Positions 2,887 to 54,996 of a DNA stretch of 56,142 bases are shown one piece after another. A model generated the notes under the pieces. That model did not search any database. It worked only from the letters and a program-made list of their open reading frames with translations, and was not told where the DNA came from. Made by a program: the position numbers and the translations under genes. Source of the stretch: a virus (lineage: Duplodnaviria > Caudoviricetes); IMG/VR virus record IMGVR_UViG_3300017910_000401, positions 1 through 56,142 of that record. One strand, written 5' to 3'. Each line of letters begins with the position of its first letter. Within the stretch, counting starts at the first letter, position 1.

Positions 2887-3041
2887 GATTTATTTACTGG
2901 TAAAAAATATTATTAACGCAGTGACATATATAAATTTTTACATTTTCTAGCTGTAAAAAAACACCCACGCTAGAACCCAGTAAATATATATCACTAGTGA
3001 ATATTTTTTTTCTATAAATCCTGGAGCCAGAAATTTCGACC

Positions 3042-3084
3042 AAAAAAAAAGGCGGTAGCTACCTGTAAAAGTAGCTACCGCCTT
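3042..3084 (-). terminator. Rho-independent terminator of the leftward early operon
   Basis: GGCGGTAGCTAC-8 nt loop-GTAGCTACCGCC followed by T9 on the minus strand, just after the stop at 3093. Confidence 0.9.
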
Positions 3085-3092
3085 AATTTTAT

Positions 3093-3842
3093 TTATTCCT
3101 CTTCTGGAATATAAATTATCTCTGATTCTCCACGACCATTAAGATATGCCAAAGCATCGTTCTTATTGATTGTTTTCTCAAAGAGATTTGTATTATGCCT
3201 TTTAGTCACGTTGGATTTGTCTCCTAAGTTGCCATTCATTAGCCACCTATCAGCAAACCAATTCGCCCTATCCTTATCTAGTGTCCAAGAAAACCCTTTA
3301 TCATCCATGCCACCACGAAAGATTGTTATCTCTTCAGGCAAAGAATCAAAAAAGGCTTTCTCTTTTTCATCCATCATTAGATGAGGATTTGCATATTGTT
3401 CTGTTAATAAACTTTTCCAAGAATATTTGTTTTGATATATATTCTCGGAGTCTATCCAAGCAGAAACAATAACATCCCAATATTCCTCATCGGAATCTGG
3501 AATCCACCAATCAGCATAAGCATTTAACAAAGCATCATGCCTGTAAGGTCTTTCATGCAAATAGATAAATCTATGAATATCGTTTTGTTCAATAGCATCT
3601 TGCACTTGAAGAACCTTAGCTTCATATTGCAAGTTGTATTGAGTTATATTCAAAGGATTATCTTCTGACATTGGCACGACAACCAACAAAGGATGATGAA
3701 TCATTTTTCCAAAAGAAGCTTCCTCGATTCTCTCTTTCAAGTCAGCATTCAATTCAACCTTCTTACTGAAGTCAAAATTAGTCATGCTTTCTAAAGAAAA
3801 GAGTTTACCAAGTTGTTCTTGTATTTCTCGCAGTCTATCCAT
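3093..3842 (-). CDS. Putative R-S-E-type ADP-ribosyltransferase-fold protein
   Basis: C-terminal ITIFRG ... GFSWT ... A..FA ... RGESEII resembles the ART catalytic R, S and ExE motifs. Confidence 0.5.
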   Translation of the reverse strand: MDRLREIQEQLGKLFSLESMTNFDFSKKVELNADLKERIEEASFGKMIHHPLLVVVPMSEDNPLNITQYNLQYEAKVLQVQDAIEQNDIHRFIYLHERPYRHDALLNAYADWWIPDSDEEYWDVIVSAWIDSENIYQNKYSWKSLLTEQYANPHLMMDEKEKAFFDSLPEEITIFRGGMDDKGFSWTLDKDRANWFADRWLMNGNLGDKSNVTKRHNTNLFEKTINKNDALAYLNGRGESEIIYIPEEE

Positions 3843-3846
3843 AACT

Positions 3847-4362
3847 CTATTTGATATCTGCTTTTCCGAACCATTTCATATACGTCTTTACGAGAAAATT
3901 CATAAGACGACTTGGATTATTTTTAAATCCAAAAGGCGGATAATAGCCTTTAGGATAAACCCATATATGATATTGGTTAGAAGTGTTTACAAGATGATGA
4001 GAAGGCGGAAATAATTCCACCCCCCATCTTTGCTTACCATCTGGCACTAGGGCATTTTTGATTTCGTATAAATCTTCCCAAGACCTTAGAGGTTTCTTAT
4101 CAAGTCTTTTGATAGATAGATAAGTCATACCTTCGGTCATTTCCCTAGAAAAAACATCGTTGCTTTCATGTACTAAAACTTGATAAGTATCGTTCATAAA
4201 AACAGGAGTTTTATCTTGGTCAGAAATTAATTTTTCCAATAACTTAGAATCAAAATTTATCCCTAGTTGAGTTTTCATAACTTTCTTTAAGTCTTTTACT
4301 CTTTCCTCCATTGGAAGATTGAGAGGATTAAAGTGTGCCTTTTCAAAGTTGTCAATACTCAT
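3847..4362 (-). CDS. Phage protein of unknown function
   Basis: Motif LSIKR...SWEDLYEIKN...VELFP....LVN..NQYHIW, recalled as a widespread phage family. Confidence 0.65.
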   Translation of the reverse strand: MSIDNFEKAHFNPLNLPMEERVKDLKKVMKTQLGINFDSKLLEKLISDQDKTPVFMNDTYQVLVHESNDVFSREMTEGMTYLSIKRLDKKPLRSWEDLYEIKNALVPDGKQRWGVELFPPSHHLVNTSNQYHIWVYPKGYYPPFGFKNNPSRLMNFLVKTYMKWFGKADIK

Positions 4363-4556
4363 GCTTCCTCCATGTTCGGATTATAAGCAACAATATCAAT
4401 CTTATATTTCAAAGTTTTTATTGTTTCCAAGTGGTATTTATTAAAAGTTTTTTGGTCAATTAACTTTGCGAATTTCTTTGCAGTGTTGCAAAAAGGATAG
4501 CAAAGGTCATTACCATAAACATTTTTATAGAATACCTTCATATTTAAATTATTCAT
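4359..4556 (-). CDS. Small hypothetical phage protein
   Basis: 65 aa, KNVYGNDLCYP motif, strong GGAGGT RBS. Confidence 0.75.
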   Translation of the reverse strand: MNNLNMKVFYKNVYGNDLCYPFCNTAKKFAKLIDQKTFNKYHLETIKTLKYKIDIVAYNPNMEEA

Positions 4557-4608
4557 AAGACCTCCATCTTATAAAAATTAGTTTAAAAAAGTTGGCTTGT
4601 AAGCCAAC

Positions 4609-4707
4609 ACCTAGACCAGAACAATCAGGTGAAAATTATTCGCTAGTGAATAATATTTTTTTATCTTGTTCTGGTTTCGATTGAATCTCACAATCTCCTC
4701 AGTAGGT
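4609..4707 (-). ncRNA. Hammerhead ribozyme HH-A (type I), predicted cut GUC between 4614 and 4613
   Basis: ACCUA-CUGAGGA-GAUUG(UGAGAUU)CAAUC-GAAA-CCAGAACAA...UUGUUCUGG-UC/UAGGU; complete core and three stems. Confidence 0.92.
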
Positions 4708-5343
4708 TTAAGTCTCTGTAAAAGTTATAGTTATACCATCACTTACAAGACCAGATACGTTTGCAAAAATACTCATAACAATTGTGTCAATTTCGTACTT
4801 TGCTTCGTAAAGTGTGTCGCATCTAAAATTTTTAGAAAAAGGCACAGCAGTTTCAAAATCATACCAAGCCATTTTGAAATTTGGATAAACGACATAATGT
4901 TTAAGATGATTATTTCTAGCAATAACAAAGTTTCGATAAAGATATTCTTTCCAATCTTTATTTTCTGATACTTTTGCTATTGCCATTTGATTACGAAGAA
5001 ACTCATAAGCTTCAGGAAAATCTTTATAAGCTTTTTGCACTTTGACTTTTGTCTTGTGCCAATCGCTTTCCTTTGGCTCTGCTTTCATTTTGTGATAAAA
5101 ATCTTTAAGACGTTTATTACACTTTTCAAAATCATCCATGAGCATAAGATATCTATGAGTTAGATTACCTTTTGCGATACAAACCTTATATTCAAAATCA
5201 AGTTTATTAAGAATATTTTTAATGGTATGTGACGTTGAATGATAACCGCTTTCATAGTAGCTTCGCATTGAATTAGGACAATTAGGATAACTGTCTAATT
5301 TTGTTTTGCTCATTTCTAAAGCATCTTTCAATAATTTTTCCAT
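4708..5343 (-). CDS. Hypothetical early protein
   Basis: 211 aa with GGAGGT RBS. Confidence 0.75.
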   Translation of the reverse strand: MEKLLKDALEMSKTKLDSYPNCPNSMRSYYESGYHSTSHTIKNILNKLDFEYKVCIAKGNLTHRYLMLMDDFEKCNKRLKDFYHKMKAEPKESDWHKTKVKVQKAYKDFPEAYEFLRNQMAIAKVSENKDWKEYLYRNFVIARNNHLKHYVVYPNFKMAWYDFETAVPFSKNFRCDTLYEAKYEIDTIVMSIFANVSGLVSDGITITFTET

Positions 5344-5370
5344 AAGACCTCCATCTTATAAAAGTTAATT

Positions 5371-5457
5371 AAACTGATTTCGGCTCTTTTGAGCCACCCT
5401 CCTAAAAGGGTACGTTTTCACGTTCATCAGGCAAAACACACATTTTGCTATCAGTTT
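5371..5457 (-). ncRNA. Hammerhead ribozyme HH-B (type III variant with extra hairpins), predicted cut AUA between 5449 and 5448
   Basis: AAACUGAUA/GCAAAA(UGUGUG)UUUUGC-CUGAUGA-[three hairpins]-GAAAUCAGUUU. Confidence 0.75.
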
Positions 5458-5500
5458 TTAAAATTAGACCTCCATACAGGCTCATAGAGGGCAAAACTAA

Positions 5501-5541
5501 TAGCAAGTGATATCTGAGTACCCCTCAAATATCACTCGCTA
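5501..5541 (-). other. 18-bp RNA hairpin after the VWA gene stop
   Basis: UAGCGAGUGAUAUUUGAG-GGGUA-CUCAGAUAUCACUUGCUA, with two G-U pairs on the minus strand. Confidence 0.7.
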
Positions 5542-5552
5542 ATAGAAAGTTT

Positions 5553-6893
5553 TTAGTCGTAGAATCTAGCAGTATCTACATAGACCACCTCGCCAAAGGC
5601 AAGACGTTCTGAATAACTGCTTTTTTCAGTACAACACCAAAACACAGGAACATCAGGCTCAACGTCTTCAGAAACGTCTCCCCAACCATCGGTAAAATAC
5701 ACTAAGGCTTGAACGTCTTCGGCATCATCAGTGTAGTCATTCAACAGATTAAATACAGGGTCAAACTCTGTACCGCCACCGCCACGAACTACTAACTCTA
5801 ATTCATCGCCTGAAGATAAATCATAGTAATCCCACCATTCCCCCTGTCCATTTTTACGAACAGTTGTGTCACAGTAGCAAACTCTGATTTTTTCAAGACC
5901 GCAGTCTTCCGCCATAGCTTGTATCTCAGTAGCAAATTTATTCAATTCGTATTGAGATACAGAACCTGAAGTATCGATTGCAACCGCTAACTCGCCACCT
6001 TGTGGAGACCTAGTTTTACTCGGCAAATTTAAACCTTGCCATGCAAACCTTTTATTCAGTCTCGACCATGAGTAATCGTTAGCAACAGAAGAACGTAAAA
6101 GGTCATTCAATTGTTCTTTCCAATCAATTGAAGTCTCTTTCAATTCTTCCATTCTGCCACCGCAAGACGAATTAGTACCGCTTCCAACAGCTACTTCTAG
6201 CTTGTCAGATAAGGCTACTGCTCTTTGAATCTCAGTTGAGATTTCTTGAATCTCAGCATCACTCAATGGCTTTCCTTCATCGTCAGTTGCATCCAACACC
6301 TCGCCAATAGTTGAAGGAATAGCATCTAAATCAATCGACTCAGATTCTTCGCCATCTTCGTCAGTTTCTTCATCAGAAATATTTCCTTCACTAGTGTCTG
6401 GTATTTCAGAATCTTGCGAATCATCCTCCATGTCCGCATTCTGATTTTGTTCCTTGACTTGCTCGATTGCTTCTTGCAGGTCATCTTCATTTTTAATTAA
6501 ATGTTGATAAACCTTTTCCGCAGACCAACCCTTGTATTTATGGTCAAGTAAACCGCCAAAAGGCAATTCAAAATTTAAATCCCAATACAAGTAAGCATTG
6601 ATAACGTAATCACAAGCAATATTCCATACTTTAGGATGACGTTTACCACGTCTTAGTGGATGTTCATAAACAACGTGCAATGCTTCGTGAACAAGTACAC
6701 CTCGCAATTCTGCTTCGGTTAATTTATCCACGAATGGCGGATAGTAAAAAATGTTTTTACCATCAGTCGCCATCGTATCGCACTTTGATTCTTCACATTC
6801 AACCAAGTCAAGATTAAGGAGCATACTAGCCATGCCAATATGCCCTTTCATCAATTTTGCTCTAGCCTTAATTATGGTTTCAAGAGTTTTCAT
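5553..6893 (-). CDS. DUF2201-type protein: HExxH metallopeptidase-like N-domain plus VWA domain
   Basis: TMATDG, LVHEALH, WNIACDYVIN, MIDAS motif DTSGS, GGGGTEF, YFTDG. The start is probably the ATG at 6893 (RBS GGAGGT upstream) rather than 6908. Confidence 0.88.
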   Translation of the reverse strand: MKTLETIIKARAKLMKGHIGMASMLLNLDLVECEESKCDTMATDGKNIFYYPPFVDKLTEAELRGVLVHEALHVVYEHPLRRGKRHPKVWNIACDYVINAYLYWDLNFELPFGGLLDHKYKGWSAEKVYQHLIKNEDDLQEAIEQVKEQNQNADMEDDSQDSEIPDTSEGNISDEETDEDGEESESIDLDAIPSTIGEVLDATDDEGKPLSDAEIQEISTEIQRAVALSDKLEVAVGSGTNSSCGGRMEELKETSIDWKEQLNDLLRSSVANDYSWSRLNKRFAWQGLNLPSKTRSPQGGELAVAIDTSGSVSQYELNKFATEIQAMAEDCGLEKIRVCYCDTTVRKNGQGEWWDYYDLSSGDELELVVRGGGGTEFDPVFNLLNDYTDDAEDVQALVYFTDGWGDVSEDVEPDVPVFWCCTEKSSYSERLAFGEVVYVDTARFYD

Positions 6894-7866
6894 CTTTCTT
6901 ACCTCCATAAATTTTGTCGAACAAATTGCCTTTCAATCCATCAATAGATTGTTCAAGACCTTCGGCAACCTGTTCACGTTTTTGCTTTCCTAAATCTGTT
7001 TCGTCTCTAAGAGAATCAACAGAATTTATTGTTGCAAGAACAGAACAAAGACTTTGATGAGCATCAGCAATATTTTTATTATTGCCTAGTACATCCTGAT
7101 TAATAGAAGGTAGCACTTCAACCGCTTGTCTCAATTTCTCGAAACTAGATTTGTTGAAGAATCCGCCCTTCTGCTTGTTGTCAGGGTCATACTCTTTGAG
7201 TTTAGTCGCAACGTGATTAACTTGTTCTAGTAAAGCATCAACAGTAATTGTCATTACGTTTTTGATGTTTTTGTTAGACCTGTTAATCGCATCCGCTTCT
7301 ATTCTCTGCCTTAACTTTTCTGAGACGTTAAGTCTAATATCGTTTCCGAAAGTAGGTACAGGAGTCATTTCAAATTGAAACAAAAACTTTTGTCTTAATT
7401 TGTCAAAATCAATGTAGTCACTTTCTCTGAAAGCATCGCCCAAGTTTCTCTTCGCCATTTCCATTTGTTTAGGATAGCTTCTGAGAAAGCCTTGAACTTC
7501 TTTATCCCAAACAAGAGTAGCTTGGTCTACTTCATACTGAAGTCGTTCAAGATTCGTGTTAGGGCAAAGTCGCCATTCCGATAAAACTTTTCCCTCGTCA
7601 TCAAGGGATGAAGAATCATCCCACGGCAAAGTTAAAGGTTTATAAAAGTCATTCCTAAACTTATCTAAAATTTGGCGAAACTCTTTATTGATATTTCGAC
7701 CAAAGATGTGTTTAGAAACACCTAACAATTTATCGTCTGATACTTTCGTATCTTCCGCTAAACCGCTTCTCAATTTCTTATCGACTTTAATGCCTGATGG
7801 ATGTCTTGCAGTAAGACGAACCAACATACAATTTTCCGATAAGGTATTTGTTAATTTTTTATCCAT
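6880..7866 (-). CDS. Helical partner of the AAA/VWA module (possibly DUF3150-like)
   Basis: 328 aa, TLPWDD...WRLCP motif; lies between the AAA and VWA genes. Confidence 0.55.
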   Translation of the reverse strand: MDKKLTNTLSENCMLVRLTARHPSGIKVDKKLRSGLAEDTKVSDDKLLGVSKHIFGRNINKEFRQILDKFRNDFYKPLTLPWDDSSSLDDEGKVLSEWRLCPNTNLERLQYEVDQATLVWDKEVQGFLRSYPKQMEMAKRNLGDAFRESDYIDFDKLRQKFLFQFEMTPVPTFGNDIRLNVSEKLRQRIEADAINRSNKNIKNVMTITVDALLEQVNHVATKLKEYDPDNKQKGGFFNKSSFEKLRQAVEVLPSINQDVLGNNKNIADAHQSLCSVLATINSVDSLRDETDLGKQKREQVAEGLEQSIDGLKGNLFDKIYGGKKDENS

Positions 7867-7896
7867 ATTAGAACCTCCATTCTGTTAGATAAAAGT

Positions 7897-7952
7897 TATC
7901 TGATTTCACAGTTTTCTGCTCGTCAGTTGGAATCACATTCCAATATCAGATA
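7897..7952 (-). ncRNA. Hammerhead ribozyme HH-C (compact type III), predicted cut AUA between 7944 and 7943
   Basis: UAUCUGAUA/UUGGAA(UGUGA)UUCCAA-CUGACGA-GCAG(AAAA)CUGU-GAAAUCAGAUA. Confidence 0.9.
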
Positions 7953-7958
7953 TTGAAG

Positions 7959-8013
7959 TGAGCAAGATGTAATTTTATTCACTAGCGAATAATATTTTTT
8001 TACATCTCGCCCA
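7959..8013 (-). other. Long RNA hairpin after the AAA gene stop, capped by the recurrent palindrome
   Basis: UGGGCGAGAUGUAA pairs with UUACAUCUUGCUCA (14 bp, two G-U pairs on the minus strand). Confidence 0.7.
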
Positions 8014-8027
8014 ATTCAGTTTTCAAC

Positions 8028-9077
8028 CTAGACTTCTAAGTCTTGATTCCTGATTTTAAAATCGGAATAAGTAGAAGTTTCTGCTAAGTCTGGAATTGCT
8101 CCAATCAAAGAACGAACATAGAAAATCGCAAATTCAGGAGTAGGTAATTTCTCAACATAGTTAAGACTATTTTGAAAATAATTAGCTACATTTGGATTAT
8201 CCATTTCCGATTTAAGAATCGAAACTAATGCACAAACTAGAGCATAAGATTTACCGCCCTCATCAATCATTTCTACGTCTTTGCCTTCACAAATATCTTG
8301 AACATTCGGCAAGTCATTTTTCAAAGACAAAAAGGTAAGAAATTCAATCGAAGCAGTCTCGCCAATATCCCCTTCACAAACTAGTTGCAAAATTTCTTTT
8401 GGCGGATTCGTTTTCAATGTATCAGAAAGACGAACCCAAGAACGTGGACTCGGCTGGGGAGTCGTAATTTTTGGGTCAAAGTCGCAAAGGTACTGAGGCT
8501 CATAACTAATGAATCCCAATACGTCAGGACTTACATCATTCTCAGTCGCCCAAGAAATCCAATCGTTAATGTTTTCATCTACATTCAACATTGTGCATCT
8601 GTCATTGACTTGCGTAGGAATTTTATTTGCTCCTGCTCTGTCAGTTGCCCTGTTTCCTGCACAAACAATTTTCCACCCATCAGGCAAAACGTACTCTCCG
8701 ATTTTTCTTTCATAGAGTAATTGTCCGCACACACACATGACCGAAGAATGAGCCTGAGCAAATTCATCAAAAAATAATATGCCCTCGCCACCAATTGGGA
8801 GATTACCTAAGAAGGCTCTCTTTTGTTGGTTATCTTCGTCTATGTAAGGCAAACCGCCTAAATCAACAGTCTCATAAAGTGACAGTCTAAAATCAATAAA
8901 TCCAAACTGTTTTTTAGTTGGATTGATTGAATTAACAATCTCTCTATCTTCTGCAAATTCTTCGGCTAGTTTCCTAACAATTGCACTTTTTCCAATCCCC
9001 GGTTTCCCTTGCAGGTAAGGGGTATTAGAACCCTTTAATATCGATTTCATCGATAATATAGCTTGACTCGGTTTCAT
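8028..9077 (-). CDS. MoxR/AAA_5-like AAA+ ATPase
   Basis: Walker A GKPGIGKS, Walker B LFFDE, AGNR, PSPRSW. Confidence 0.9.
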   Translation of the reverse strand: MKPSQAILSMKSILKGSNTPYLQGKPGIGKSAIVRKLAEEFAEDREIVNSINPTKKQFGFIDFRLSLYETVDLGGLPYIDEDNQQKRAFLGNLPIGGEGILFFDEFAQAHSSVMCVCGQLLYERKIGEYVLPDGWKIVCAGNRATDRAGANKIPTQVNDRCTMLNVDENINDWISWATENDVSPDVLGFISYEPQYLCDFDPKITTPQPSPRSWVRLSDTLKTNPPKEILQLVCEGDIGETASIEFLTFLSLKNDLPNVQDICEGKDVEMIDEGGKSYALVCALVSILKSEMDNPNVANYFQNSLNYVEKLPTPEFAIFYVRSLIGAIPDLAETSTYSDFKIRNQDLEV

Positions 9078-9130
9078 ATAAGACCTCCATCTTTTATACC
9101 AAGTTAGAATTCGTTAGCAGAATTGCTAAC

Positions 9131-9211
9131 ACCTAGAAGCAACCTTTTTACAGGCTAGACTTAAATCTATTTAATGCTTTTCGCTAGAGTTTCACTAGCA
9201 CGTCAGTAGGT
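9131..9211 (-). ncRNA. Hammerhead ribozyme HH-D (type I, A9U core variant), predicted cut UUC between 9136 and 9135
   Basis: ACCUA-CUGACGU-GCUAG(UGAAACU)CUAGC-GAAA-AGCA...UGCU-UC/UAGGU; overlaps the stop codon of the upstream ORF. Confidence 0.8.
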
Positions 9212-9625
9212 TTCTCTAAGAACTTCTTTTCCTAAAGTTAAATCGTAATGAATCTCCCTCGTTAGTTTAGGACTTTTAGTCTTGTCAATCCTAATCCAAT
9301 TATTAGATTCTTTGTCCTGATAAAGTCTAGGCTCAAAGTAAATATGAGTCTCGTTATCGTTCATTTGATATTTTTCAAATGAGGGAATCCAATCATCAGA
9401 TTCCATTCTCCAATCGATAAAATCATACCTAGTCATTACGTTGTCTTTTTTAATTAATTTAATTAAAGGCAAAATCTCTTTTACCAATTCAAGACTTTCA
9501 CTTGAAGAAATATCCTCAATTACGAACTCAGTTAATCCTTTAGGCTTCCAATAATCATTACCTTCCGCAGGATTTTCTACGTTGTAATTTGCAAATGTCT
9601 GAAAAGTTAATACTAATTTGCTCAT
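9203..9625 (-). CDS. Hypothetical early protein
   Basis: 140 aa, QTFANY...YWKPKG motif, GGAGG RBS. Confidence 0.75.
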   Translation of the reverse strand: MSKLVLTFQTFANYNVENPAEGNDYWKPKGLTEFVIEDISSSESLELVKEILPLIKLIKKDNVMTRYDFIDWRMESDDWIPSFEKYQMNDNETHIYFEPRLYQDKESNNWIRIDKTKSPKLTREIHYDLTLGKEVLRETY

Positions 9626-9680
9626 TTTTTTCTAACCCTCCATTAGTTAGTTATTAAAATAGTTGGCATTATTGCCAACC

Positions 9681-9743
9681 ACCTAGACCAACCCAAATTA
9701 ATTGAGTTGGTTTCGCCTGAATTTCACAGGCTCTTCAGTAGGT
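9681..9743 (-). ncRNA. Hammerhead ribozyme HH-E (canonical type I), predicted cut GUC between 9686 and 9685
   Basis: ACCUA-CUGAAGA-GCCUG(UGAAAUU)CAGGC-GAAA-CCAACUCAA(UUAAU)UUGGGUUGG-UC/UAGGU. Confidence 0.95.
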
Positions 9744-10049
9744 TTAGAATTGTTGAATAACATATCCTCCGCAATCAGTTTCTAAAACTGTGGTCACATC
9801 TTTTATGCTCTCCAATGTTGAATAAATTGTGCTTGTTCCATTGATTGAATAATCAGCAATCAATTCATCAACATTTTTATATTCCGCATAATCACAACAA
9901 ATGGCAATCACATCTAATTCTAAATTTTCCAATTCAGACAAATGCTCGTACAAAGCCTTTAACCCTTCTCTTGAAAAGTTGTTGGCATATTGTCCTGAGT
10001 TTCCAAATTCATTAATGAATTGATTTTCGTTTAAAGTTTTATATATCAT
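9744..10049 (-). CDS. Hypothetical early phage protein
   Basis: 101 aa, NFSREGLKALYE...ELDVIAICCDYAEY motif, GGAGG RBS. Confidence 0.75.
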   Translation of the reverse strand: MIYKTLNENQFINEFGNSGQYANNFSREGLKALYEHLSELENLELDVIAICCDYAEYKNVDELIADYSINGTSTIYSTLESIKDVTTVLETDCGGYVIQQF

Positions 10050-10093
10050 TTTCTATCCTCCACGATAGTTAGATAAGAGACTTAATTGTCTCT

Positions 10094-10159
10094 CCTCCTG
10101 AGTTTCTTGAATCCAATTAAGGATTCTCATTCAGCACGTTAATTCGTGGACTCTGGAGG
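10094..10159 (-). ncRNA. Hammerhead ribozyme HH-F (type III variant with kissing loops), predicted cut GUC between 10149 and 10148
   Basis: CCUCC-A-GAGUC/CACG(AAUUAA)CGUG-CUGAAUGA-GAAUCC(UUAAUU)GGAUUC-AA-GAAACUC-A-GGAGG. Confidence 0.8.
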
Positions 10160-10408
10160 GAGTCTCCCAATCGCAGTAATTATTCCAAACGTCACTACTA
10201 AACCGCAAAAGGGATTACAGGCTTCATGGCTTATGCTCGACCTGTATTGTTCATCGTACCCTGCACGTTGCAGACCTAGAGAACCCTCACTGTTTTAGGA
10301 CAATCGCTGTGAGCCGACCTGCAACAAATGACACTTTAATTCGCATATTGCATGACGAAAGACCCTTAAAAAAGGGAGGGTCAAAAGTCGCTGTTGTCTG
10401 TCCATGCA
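10160..10408 (-). ncRNA. Structured 5' leader or candidate ncRNA of the early operon
   Basis: No credible ORF on this strand; stems UGCAUG/CAUGCA, GACCCU/AGGGUC, GUUGCAGGUC/GGUCUGCAAC (G-U pairs), CUCAC/GUGAG and UACAGG/CCUGUA. Confidence 0.5.
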
Positions 10409-17789: not shown

Positions 17790-18377
17790 ATGTCATCAAG
17801 TGCTACTCCACACGGAGCGAGACCTATTGGTACGATTGTTGGAAGTCCTTACCAAGGAAAAGTTACTCATTACAAAATTAAAAATGCTTATGGCACATCA
17901 ATATTTTTTGGTGATTTTGTAAAATGGGGTGACGACAACCCTAATACCACTATCCAAAAAGATACTGGTACGACTTCATTAACACCTATTGGTGTTTTTC
18001 TTGGTTGTGCTTACACCGACCCTACTACAGGTCAATTTACAACAAATCAATATTATCCAGCCTCTACAGCTGCAGATGATATTGTCGCATATGTTGCTAG
18101 CGACCCTTTCATACTAATGCAAATGCAATCAGACGAAGCTCTTACTCAAGACGACCTTGGTAAGAATTTTGCGGTGGTTCAAACTGCAGGAAGTACAGCA
18201 ATCGGAACTAGTAAAAATGCTGTCGATGGGAGCACGGCTGCTACCACAAACACACTACCTTTAAAACTCGTTGACTTTGTTGACGGACCAGATAGTGCTG
18301 TAGGTGATAGTTTTACAGACGTGCTAGTTATGTTTAATGTTGGACATCAGTTGTTGAATACAACTGGTATAGGTTAA
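17790..18377 (+). CDS. Putative head decoration/minor capsid protein
   Basis: Beta-rich 195 aa directly before the major capsid gene; AAGGAG RBS. Confidence 0.55.
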   Translation: MSSSATPHGARPIGTIVGSPYQGKVTHYKIKNAYGTSIFFGDFVKWGDDNPNTTIQKDTGTTSLTPIGVFLGCAYTDPTTGQFTTNQYYPASTAADDIVAYVASDPFILMQMQSDEALTQDDLGKNFAVVQTAGSTAIGTSKNAVDGSTAATTNTLPLKLVDFVDGPDSAVGDSFTDVLVMFNVGHQLLNTTGIG

Positions 18378-18388
18378 GGAGGCTTATT

Positions 18389-54587: not shown

Positions 54588-54748
54588 TAGCTTTTCTCCG
54601 TCATTGCATTTTCTTCGTTCTCTATATCACTAAGCCATTCATCAAAAGGTTGTCTAACCCATTCTGGCATATCATTCATAAGAACAACTAACTTTGGGTT
54701 ATCATTCCATTCAACAGCTATTTGACTAGCTACTATTCTTCTCTTCAT
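54587..54748 (-). CDS. Small hypothetical protein (53 aa; not in the ORF track)
   Basis: MKRRIVASQIAVEWNDNP...; start and stop both overlap the neighbouring genes. Confidence 0.55.
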   Translation of the reverse strand: MKRRIVASQIAVEWNDNPKLVVLMNDMPEWVRQPFDEWLSDIENEENAMTEKS

Positions 54749-54996
54749 GCTTCCCCCTTTTTTATATCATGCTTCACATTTTTTAATCTTTCAGATAAAT
54801 CATGTTCATTTGTTTTGATTTTTTTGTGACCAAACATTTCATTAAATACCTGTTGAGCCATACTTCTTGAGTACGGCTCTTCGTTATGACCCAACTTTTC
54901 TTTCGTGTTCATAAAAAACCATCTAGTAAAATTAGCTTCGTATGGTTCGCTGTCTTCAAATTCAAACTTCATCTGTGCCTCCAAAATATTATTCAC
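54745..54996 (-). CDS. Hypothetical protein
   Basis: 83-aa ORF; the internal ATG after GGAGG may be the true start. Confidence 0.55.
   Translation of the reverse strand: MNNILEAQMKFEFEDSEPYEANFTRWFFMNTKEKLGHNEEPYSRSMAQQVFNEMFGHKKIKTNEHDLSERLKNVKHDIKKGEA

Follow-up and report, generated by a model that had tools for sequence, protein, structure and literature searches.

Shine-Dalgarno sequences in the loops of covarying hairpins along a marine phage operon, and their possible link to a hammerhead-like anti-Shine-Dalgarno element

Why should a phage place the Shine-Dalgarno (SD) sequences of an operon in the loops of small hairpins? The question is raised by the virus record IMGVR_UViG_3300017910_000401, a whole viral contig of 56,142 bases (35% G+C, rated 95% complete) which was analysed at its full length and is called the window here, and in particular by its minus-strand operon of genes g1 to g9 (Table 1). 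A sequence-only reading of this DNA had pointed to seven SD hairpins in the operon, with different stems but kept pairing and including that of the first gene after every ribozyme, and had proposed a translational switch shared by all processed units, by analogy with the targets of CsrA/RsmA and of T4 RegB. The comparisons made here support the view that the hairpins are a real shared feature, held by covariation and specific to the operon, and suggest that the earlier interpretation was half right: the module seems to be shared and tied to ribozymes, yet its partner would, on the evidence, be an RNA and neither CsrA nor RegB. The reading that we favour, and to which we give an even chance, is that the hairpins form a conserved cis-acting module of the ribosome-binding site (RBS) and represent one of the two states of a hammerhead-linked arrangement of SD and anti-SD.

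A mechanical scan for GGAG within at least five contiguous pairs (G.U allowed) and a loop of no more than 7 nt recovers all seven minus-strand sites (7/7 by this pairing rule), at or around the positions at which they had been described. The hairpins of g6 and g7 are longer than was described (11 and 10 bp, AUG included) and that of g2 is best drawn as 9632-9650, the other extents being as described. A 23-nt cassette is common to g6 and g7, with its core also in g3, and as three sites share one cassette (AAGAUGGAGGUCUU) the window holds five independent stems, not seven. By their predicted stabilities six hairpins are credible, whilst that of g5, which lies in coding sequence, is doubtful: it is the weakest of the seven, is not predicted to be stable and is retained at only 8 of 22 orthologous sites. 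At g3, g4, g6 and g7 the module is predicted to pair the start codon too. A separate word, CUAAC, stands 5-20 nt upstream of the SDs of g1 to g4 (e.g., 10069-10073, 9651-9655, 9103-9107 and 7884-7888) and precedes the SD in most operon RBSs, as well as in the widely spaced genes gp23-gp27 of the pelagiphage HTVC023P (L087); upstream of g2 it reads UAACUAACUAA, with stop codons in three frames.

Taking as putative RBS any GGAG, GAGG or AGGA core 3-12 nt before the start codon of an open frame of at least 60 codons, hairpins occur at 7 of the 8 SD-bearing operon starts vs 4 of the 45 putative RBSs elsewhere in the genome (Fisher p 1.6e-5), the latter being divided into 4/37 in the plus-strand block and 0/8 in a second minus-strand block at 52.4-56.1 kb. 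When 12 nt of each flank were shuffled with the GGAG fixed, a stem of at least 5 bp arose with a per-site probability of 0.05-0.26, so that a single 5-bp site is unremarkable; the joint probability of 7/8 operon starts reaching 5 bp is 4.5e-6 (1.4e-6 with the inner AU...GU also fixed).

Marine metagenomes contain hundreds of proteins homologous to the g3 ATPase (44-70% identity). A profile search with it gave 80 IMG/VR loci (57-100% ATPase identity), whose RBSs were called by a simple caller of our own (the first SD-bearing start of an open frame of 80 codons or more) and dereplicated on 33 nt. In these relatives 110 of 178 operon-strand GGAG RBSs (62%) have a stem of at least 5 bp, vs 5/34 on the other strand. 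As a late-gene control, 80 loci around the capsid gene gave such stems at 50 of 324 dereplicated GGAG RBSs (15%), which equals the shuffle expectation and differs from the operon with p 5e-26, a value that, like the other p-values from the relatives, overstates independence because the sets hold related sequences and some miscalled starts. The sequence-only reading had itself named the comparison with late RBSs and shuffles as a possible refutation, and the comparison turned out in favour of enrichment. None of the 27 annotated starts of HTVC023P has an SD hairpin. The hairpin at the RBS of the window's capsid gene (18369-18387) was considered as a sign of a general hairpin for efficient translation, and was rejected because it is not conserved in the 80 capsid loci.

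At the orthologous ATPase start the sequence of the SD flanks differs among lineages and their complementarity is mostly kept, and the orthologous g4 sites show at least 10 different stems; stems at orthologous sites vary, for example, as AGAAU/GUUCU, UGAAU/GUUCA, AAUAAU/GUUAUU, UAAUU/GAUUA and UAGAU/GUCUA. With the tetraloop register fixed and all 178 sites taken unselected, pairs 2-5 are formed in 0.61, 0.55, 0.54 and 0.59 of them, vs 0.48, 0.36, 0.37 and 0.41 with permuted partners (standard deviation ~0.03) and 0.35-0.48 with slid partners; pairs 6 and 7 of the same sites are at background level. The loop is a tetraloop in 64 of the 110 hairpins, and larger by 2 nt in 26 and by 3 nt in 13. 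Partition-function folding of positions -45 to +20 around the operon RBSs predicts less SD pairing than in shuffles (0.34 vs 0.50, p 7e-13) within a region that is more structured than shuffles (mean z -0.86), and on the other strand the SD is paired as in shuffles (0.49 vs 0.49). At g3 and g4 an outer helix joins a conserved word of the 5′ untranslated region (UTR) to codons 1-4; that of g3, scored as a hand-set helix since RNAalifold on a MAFFT alignment gave no structure owing to gaps, has 84.5% of cells paired vs 13-44% with slid partners, and shows modest covariation (5 double-change cells).

The operon RBSs also differ from the late ones in consensus, which is W-U-GGAG-G in the operon (U at -1 in 84%, G at +1 in 93%; n=178) and A-A-GGAG in late genes (A at -1 in 78%, G at +1 in 17%; n=324). 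Pairing with the ribosomal anti-SD at the 3′ end of 16S rRNA predicts A at -1, not U. The closing pair of the tetraloop is U.G in 143/178 operon sites. One phage can run two RBS classes, UGGAGG in a hairpin and plain AAGGAG, for different gene sets, and these are a simple handle for class-specific translational control.

As for the ribozymes, each ribozyme-like spacer (upstream of g1, g2, g3, g4, g6 and g7) precedes a hairpin RBS, the hairpins marking the first gene after each such spacer. In the relatives, hairpins are found at 97/153 RBSs behind spacers of more than 60 nt (80/124 for 61-300 nt, 17/29 for longer ones) vs 13/57 coupled RBSs, and at 87/128 RBSs with the pattern CUGANGA...GAAA within 220 nt upstream vs 26/87 without it. 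Neither in the window nor in 12 relatives does any Rfam family reach its gathering score; the only relevant match at E<=10 is a sub-threshold RAGATH-1 hammerhead at 9681-9763, the other spacers being motif readings. Competition between the stem III 3′ strand of the g3-g4 ribozyme and the start region of g4 was considered and rejected, as the pairing is not kept in relatives.

Some details of these spacers deserve a mention of their own. The g2-g3 spacer has hammerhead-like helices and a box reading CUGACGU, with U where A9 is expected and the stop codon of g2 inside the box, and may be a variant or a dead copy. Upstream of the g5-g6 element, at 5470-5495 on the minus strand, a decoy AUGGAGGUCU, not followed by a start codon, carries the g6 RBS word AUGGAGG; pairing between it and CCUCUAU is possible and may amount to a second SD/anti-SD arrangement. 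The hairpins at 9662-9680, 9113-9130 and 4591-4608, each behind a type-I-like ribozyme spacer, contain G/C (GUUGGC.../GUUAGC...) and start 5 nt after the predicted cut (UAGGU), and would be the 5′-terminal hairpins of the processed mRNA.

The RNA partner that we propose lies at the head of the operon, where a hammerhead-like element (10064-10173, minus strand) includes a hairpin whose loop, CCUCCA, is the exact complement of the operon's UGGAGG. When the relatives' operon strand is scanned for hairpin loops containing CCUCC, one conserved CCUCCA hairpin per locus emerges, with covarying stems, followed by GUC, a 4-bp hairpin (loop AAUUAA), CUGA(N)GAG, a 6-bp hairpin and (AA)GAAAC, and then by a short spacer, the next gene's UGGAGG in a hairpin of its own and AUG. 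This constant order has the topology of a type-III hammerhead. R1, the covariance model of the element, matches the window only once (next best E 0.2) and the relatives 104 times at E<=0.01, at 74/80 loci by table reading and always on the operon strand. In some relatives (L044, L047, L054, L055 and L065) the element is repeated three or four times ahead of consecutive small genes, and in certain copies the anti-SD is degenerate (CUUCC, CCUUU) or missing. On the operon strand of the window, CCUCC occurs only twice in 3000-10400 (10155-10159 and 10375-10379) vs 32 times genome-wide on the same strand, a scarcity suggesting that the operon mRNA may avoid anti-SD words.

Across stems I and II, 99.5% of 370 cells are paired and 51 are double-change cells; the covariation score is 0.437 vs 0.142 in shuffles (0/500 as high), slid partners giving no more than 0.099, and the family has the three-helix core of a hammerhead with stems I and II closed and stem III open. 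Next to the core, the pairs A15.1-U16.1 and C15.2-G16.2 are invariant in 34/34 main-class sequences, and pair 15.3/16.3 of stem III is A-U in 16 of them, U-A in 15 and mismatched in 3. The predicted cleavage triplet, of the NUH type, is GUC (C17) in 34/37 and GUA in three variant-class rows read by eye, and the CUGANGA box is CUGAUGA or CUGAAGA in most of the 37 aligned sequences. In 31/34 a duplex of at least 6 bp between the next gene's SD and CCUCC(A), beyond an internal loop, makes the distal part of stem III. The anti-SD hairpin has a stem of its own of at least 5 bp in 34/34, vs 12% with arms swapped between lineages, and its 3′ arm stops exactly at C17 in 26/34, whilst it runs one base further in 7 and four bases further in 1. 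Its 5′ arm pairs with the same 16.x strand as stem III does, and because the pairing strands are shared, two local hairpins with the hexamers in their loops and a complete stem III are mutually exclusive folds. They are predicted to be near-isoenergetic (-21.5 vs -22.1 kcal/mol, the stem III fold being lower in 19/32), and in the predicted 3′ product the probability of an unpaired GGAG is 0.72.

These features could be combined as follows. The module, W-U-GGAG-G-W with short complementary arms, would keep the SD unpaired at the apex of a weak local hairpin, with the A/U-rich flanks paired. In the uncut RNA of the relatives, the next gene's SD would pair with CCUCCA as distal stem III, i.e., the SD would be masked and the ribozyme in its active fold; a cut at GUC would let both strands refold locally, the anti-SD strand into the hairpin ending at the cut site and the SD strand into the hairpin with the SD in its loop, ready for the 30S subunit. 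For the seven hairpins of the window the most likely role would be that of SD display or insulation, freeing the SDs of processed units from adjacent structured RNA, and in the anti-SD units the SD hairpin would also represent the state that a cleavage-coupled switch releases. In this model, drawn from comparison of sequences, the self-cleavage of the RNA, its refolding and whatever effect they have on translation are presumed steps. Of the proposal that the hairpins are common to all processed units, the operon-specific and covarying module is what stands, whilst a switch acting on all units stays conjectural.

Several points weigh against this reading. A closed GGAG tetraloop must open for the 16S anti-SD, so that the hairpin could damp translation as well as help it, and several hairpins are marginal at 37 C (-1.8 kcal/mol for g3 and g4, 0.0 for g5). 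The U at -1 is retained when unpaired in a larger loop (37/43) and without a hairpin (26/41), and hence neither hairpin closure nor pure display can be its full explanation. Start-codon sequestration was rejected as a family-wide feature (pairing of 0.54 vs 0.53 in shuffles), which makes the outer helices gene-specific. The RBS sets of the relatives carry the miscalled starts and the non-independence already mentioned. As for the element, its CUGANGA box is one base longer in the window and in several other sequences (CUGAAUGA); GAAAC hardly varies, but in the main class an inserted AA separates it from stem II (CAAGAAAC); and no curated Rfam family matches at 10064-10173 at E<=10. Catalysis is for these three reasons spoken of here as predicted. 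Furthermore, none of the seven window hairpins is a direct partner of stem III: the element's own stem III partner is a pseudo-SD, with the g1 hairpin 30 nt further on. A cis anti-SD is found only for g1 (the CCUCCA loop, P 0.11) and g6 (CCCUCUAUG, ~5483-5491, P 0.12), neither being significant alone, and in a duplex search per spacer those of g2, g4 and g7 have less SD complementarity than shuffles. In the relatives the hairpin is present at 31/40 RBSs with CCUCC within 150 nt upstream and at 79/138 without it, which means that the hairpin module is not confined to anti-SD units.

This last count is what one would expect if the anti-SD acted in trans, i.e., if the CCUCCA hairpin of the leader's 5′ cleavage product kissed all UGGAGG loops of the operon over 6 bp, repressing or timing their translation jointly. 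The loops are exact complements, both are held by covarying hairpins, their duplex has a predicted energy of -8.6 kcal/mol (37 C), the U at -1 (A in late genes) is unexplained by 16S pairing and kept where it closes no pair, and a hairpin ending at the cut in most sequences would suit the stable 3′ end of a released RNA. Action in trans would account for the U at -1 throughout and for the display of both partners in loops. We nonetheless regard this alternative as rather unlikely, given that the window has one anti-SD for about seven RBSs, that the GGAG tetraloop must open to form 6 bp, that the almost invariant loop leaves no loop-RBS covariation to be scored, and that in relatives the same complementarity is already accounted for in cis at the adjacent RBS. 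It is tempting, though equally doubtful, to picture the released RNA as a ‘decoy ribosome’ mimicking the ribosomal anti-SD, with the U at -1 there to pair with the A of its loop.

The hairpin could instead be an operator, recognized by a CsrA-like, RegB-like or other protein or nuclease of host or phage, which would repress or cut all units. CsrA prefers A(N)GGA, and its dimers usually bridge two GGA sites. GGA is in the RBS hairpin loop at 7/7 sites by the pairing rule (6/7 predicted to be stable) and six of the seven read AUGGA, which fits that preference; the loop and the first flanking bases are conserved and the stems variable, as in protein-binding hairpins, and at g6 and g7 the hairpin encloses the AUG, like coat-protein operators. 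Against this stand the varying loop size and the lack of any match to CsrA (PF02599) or RegB (PF10715) at E<=1 in this 95%-complete phage genome, as well as a second GGA in the leaders of g1, g4 and g6 and in none of those of g2, g3 and g7 (3/6). RegB is moreover reported to be inhibited by structure (PMC1702504). The two analogies of the sequence-only reading are thus left without their proteins in the phage, and a protein operator of any kind seems improbable.

Still less do we believe in a mere stability element, whereby the hairpins would shield the A/U-rich, ribosome-free RBS flanks from host endonucleases (e.g., RNase E) and make processed units last longer. Such flanks do become paired in a region more structured than shuffles, processing separates units each of which also has a 5′-proximal hairpin, and transcripts with 5′ hairpins are reported to be more stable (PMC6206723); but this accounts neither for the centring of the SD in the loop nor for the U at -1, and the late mRNAs of the same phages are equally A/U-rich without having hairpins. 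That the hairpins have no present function, being a relic of a duplicated cassette, a by-product of composition or a DNA-level palindrome, is very hard to credit: the cassette common to three window sites, the frequency of single 5-bp stems in shuffles and the unconserved capsid-gene hairpin would suit it, but different stems are kept at orthologous sites across 57-100% ATPase identity, at 62% vs a background of 15%, and with a U.G closing pair in most operon sites, a pair that would be mismatched both in DNA and in the opposite strand.

The phages concerned are marine podophages, distant kin of the pelagiphage HTVC023P. A DNA similarity search against 50,697 phage records gave no match to the window; the portal proteins of the Pelagibacter phages HTVC023P and HTVC027P share 43% identity with that of the window, whose plus strand also encodes a large terminase, a major head protein and tail fibres. 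The second minus-strand block at 52.4-56.1 kb has Sak-like and RusA-like genes and is a more typical early/middle module; this block has no such hairpins, and the hairpin genes are at most putatively ‘early’. Two metatranscriptome runs contain 5-7% of the words and give 12 short contigs in coding parts with no ends or joints, and are uninformative on processing or expression. A 3.6-kb contig with a 100% identical ATPase (L084) was binned in a metagenome-assembled genome of Flavobacteriales and is too short to be evidence of the host, and such a host would be odd for a phage dependent on strong SDs. The palindrome TTC(A/G)CTAG(T/C)GAA, with A/T-rich flanks, occurs at 2498-2509, 4639-4650 and 7978-7989, with near-copies around 3005 and 54990; it recurs in operon spacers and is also present 3′ of the terminator. 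In the g3-g4 and g6-g7 spacers long hairpins have it at their tips, and it could be a DNA-level operator or promoter element. The sole RBS of the UGGAGG class outside the operon, that of a gene at 54745-54972, has a near-copy of this palindrome (AACUAGUGAAUAAUAUUUU) just upstream (54973-54990, minus strand).

Table 1. Features of the minus-strand operon, in window coordinates (energies are predicted, in kcal/mol, at 37 C and 15 C)
Feature	Position	Strand	Remarks
Operon	~10300 to 3045-3083	minus	g1-g9
Type-III hammerhead-like element	10064-10173	minus	operon head; R1 79.6 bits, E 1.3e-17
Anti-SD hairpin GACUC-CCUCCA-GAGUC	10149-10164	minus	loop 10154-10159; 3′ arm ends at predicted cleavage base C17 (10149)
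Element stem I hairpin	10135-10148	minus	
Element CUGAAUGAG	10126-10134	minus	
Element stem II	10109-10126	minus	
Element AAGAAAC	10102-10108	minus	
Element stem III 3′ strand ACUCAGGAGG	10094-10103	minus	pseudo-SD, no start codon after it
g1 RBS hairpin CUAUC-GUGGAG-GAUAG	10053-10068	minus	7 nt before AUG at 10049; -3.9, -7.3
g1	9744-10049	minus	
g1-g2 spacer, type-I hammerhead-like	9682-9742	minus	RAGATH-1 35.5 bits, below gathering (56.3), and motif reading; then hairpin 9662-9680
g2 RBS hairpin CUAACU-AAUGGAG-GGUUAG	9632-9650	minus	6-bp stem, 7-nt loop; -3.2, -6.7
g2	9203-9625	minus	
g2-g3 spacer, hammerhead-like	9132-9210	minus	motif reading only; then hairpin 9113-9130
g3 RBS hairpin AAGAU-GGAG-GUCUU	9080-9093	minus	-1.8, -3.6
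g3 outer helix	9099-9104 / 9066-9071	minus	capped by RBS hairpin, encloses AUG
g3	8028-9077	minus	MoxR-like ATPase
g3-g4 spacer, type-III hammerhead-like	7897-7953	minus	motif reading only; stem III 3′ strand ends ~25 nt before g4 SD
g4 RBS hairpin AGAAU-GGAG-GUUCU	7870-7883	minus	-1.8, -3.6
g4 outer helix	7886-7894 / 7857-7865	minus	capped by RBS hairpin, takes in UG of AUG
g4	6880-7866	minus	
g5 RBS UUUAU-GGAG-GUAAG	6898-6911	minus	in g4 coding end; two G.U pairs; 0.0, -0.4
g5	5553-6893	minus	DUF2201 metallopeptidase/VWA protein
g5-g6 spacer, type-III hammerhead-like	5371-5457	minus	motif reading and duplex search
g6 RBS hairpin	5338-5363	minus	11-bp stem, GGAG tetraloop, AUG in 3′ arm; -8.0, -13.3
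g6	4708-5343	minus	
g6-g7 spacer, type-I hammerhead-like	4610-4706	minus	motif reading only; then hairpin 4591-4608
g7 RBS hairpin	4552-4575	minus	10-bp stem, GGAG tetraloop, AUG in 3′ arm; -7.5, -11.9
g7	4359-4556	minus	
g8 RBS AUGGAGG	4363-4373	minus	no tight hairpin; coupled to g7 via AUGA overlap
g8	3847-4362	minus	DUF7694
g9	3093-3842	minus	no SD
Terminator-like hairpin	3045-3083	minus	strong, with U-run; closes operon 3′ of g9

How does this arrangement compare with what is known? The reason why hammerhead and twister ribozymes stand beside particular bacterial and phage genes is stated as unknown in PMC10085705, and the present phage family would be a concrete and testable answer for one case, with a stem III built from an anti-SD and the next gene's SD, and refolding hairpins on both products, whereby self-cleavage would be coupled to the unmasking of the RBS. 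A full-text search, with subscription journals outside its scope, returned no title or abstract describing RBS hairpins or an anti-SD ribozyme element, and the ribozyme catalogues supplementing PMC3088659 or PMC10085705 could already list the latter.

Like the targets of CsrA/RsmA, the hairpins present GGA in a short loop overlapping the SD, but they lack both a phage csrA and, in half of the leaders examined, a second site, and their GGAG is closed by U.G and is not an ANGGAN. They also resemble the kissing antisense systems CopA/CopT, RNA I/RNA II and TAR/TAR*, having two hairpins with fully complementary loops, with the difference that an SD makes up one of the two loops in the phage and a mimic of the 16S anti-SD the other, and that the contact between them is presumed. 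With T4 RegB targets they share GGAG in the SDs of one phage gene class, whereas RegB is reported to be hindered by structure and to require an A-rich 3′ element (PMC1702504); here stems enclose the GGAG and no regB homologue is present.

Sequestration of the SD is a common cis-regulatory mechanism, as stated in PMC5737381, and as in riboswitches a CCUCC-type anti-SD would pair with the SD in one of two exclusive folds; unlike riboswitches, however, there is no ligand-binding domain here, and it is strand scission, not the binding of a ligand, that would render the change irreversible. In RiboJ (PMC6206723) a ribozyme removes the upstream RNA and the leftover hairpin is thought to expose the RBS and stabilise the 5′ end; that hairpin lies upstream of the RBS, whereas here the SD itself is the loop, and the design is repeated along the genes of a natural operon. 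A further parallel is offered by the engineered hammerheads which work in E. coli as RBS-masking aptazymes (PMC7445771): their 5′ UTR has the SD locked in a hammerhead stem, from which cleavage frees it, exposing the RBS. These are synthetic, type-I and ligand-gated, whereas the element described here is natural and type-III-like, has no aptamer that we could see, and has competing hairpins on both strands, its cleavage being predicted. If the proposed coupling is true, it would be the natural counterpart of two devices, the RBS-masking aptazymes and RiboJ, that were designed independently of it.

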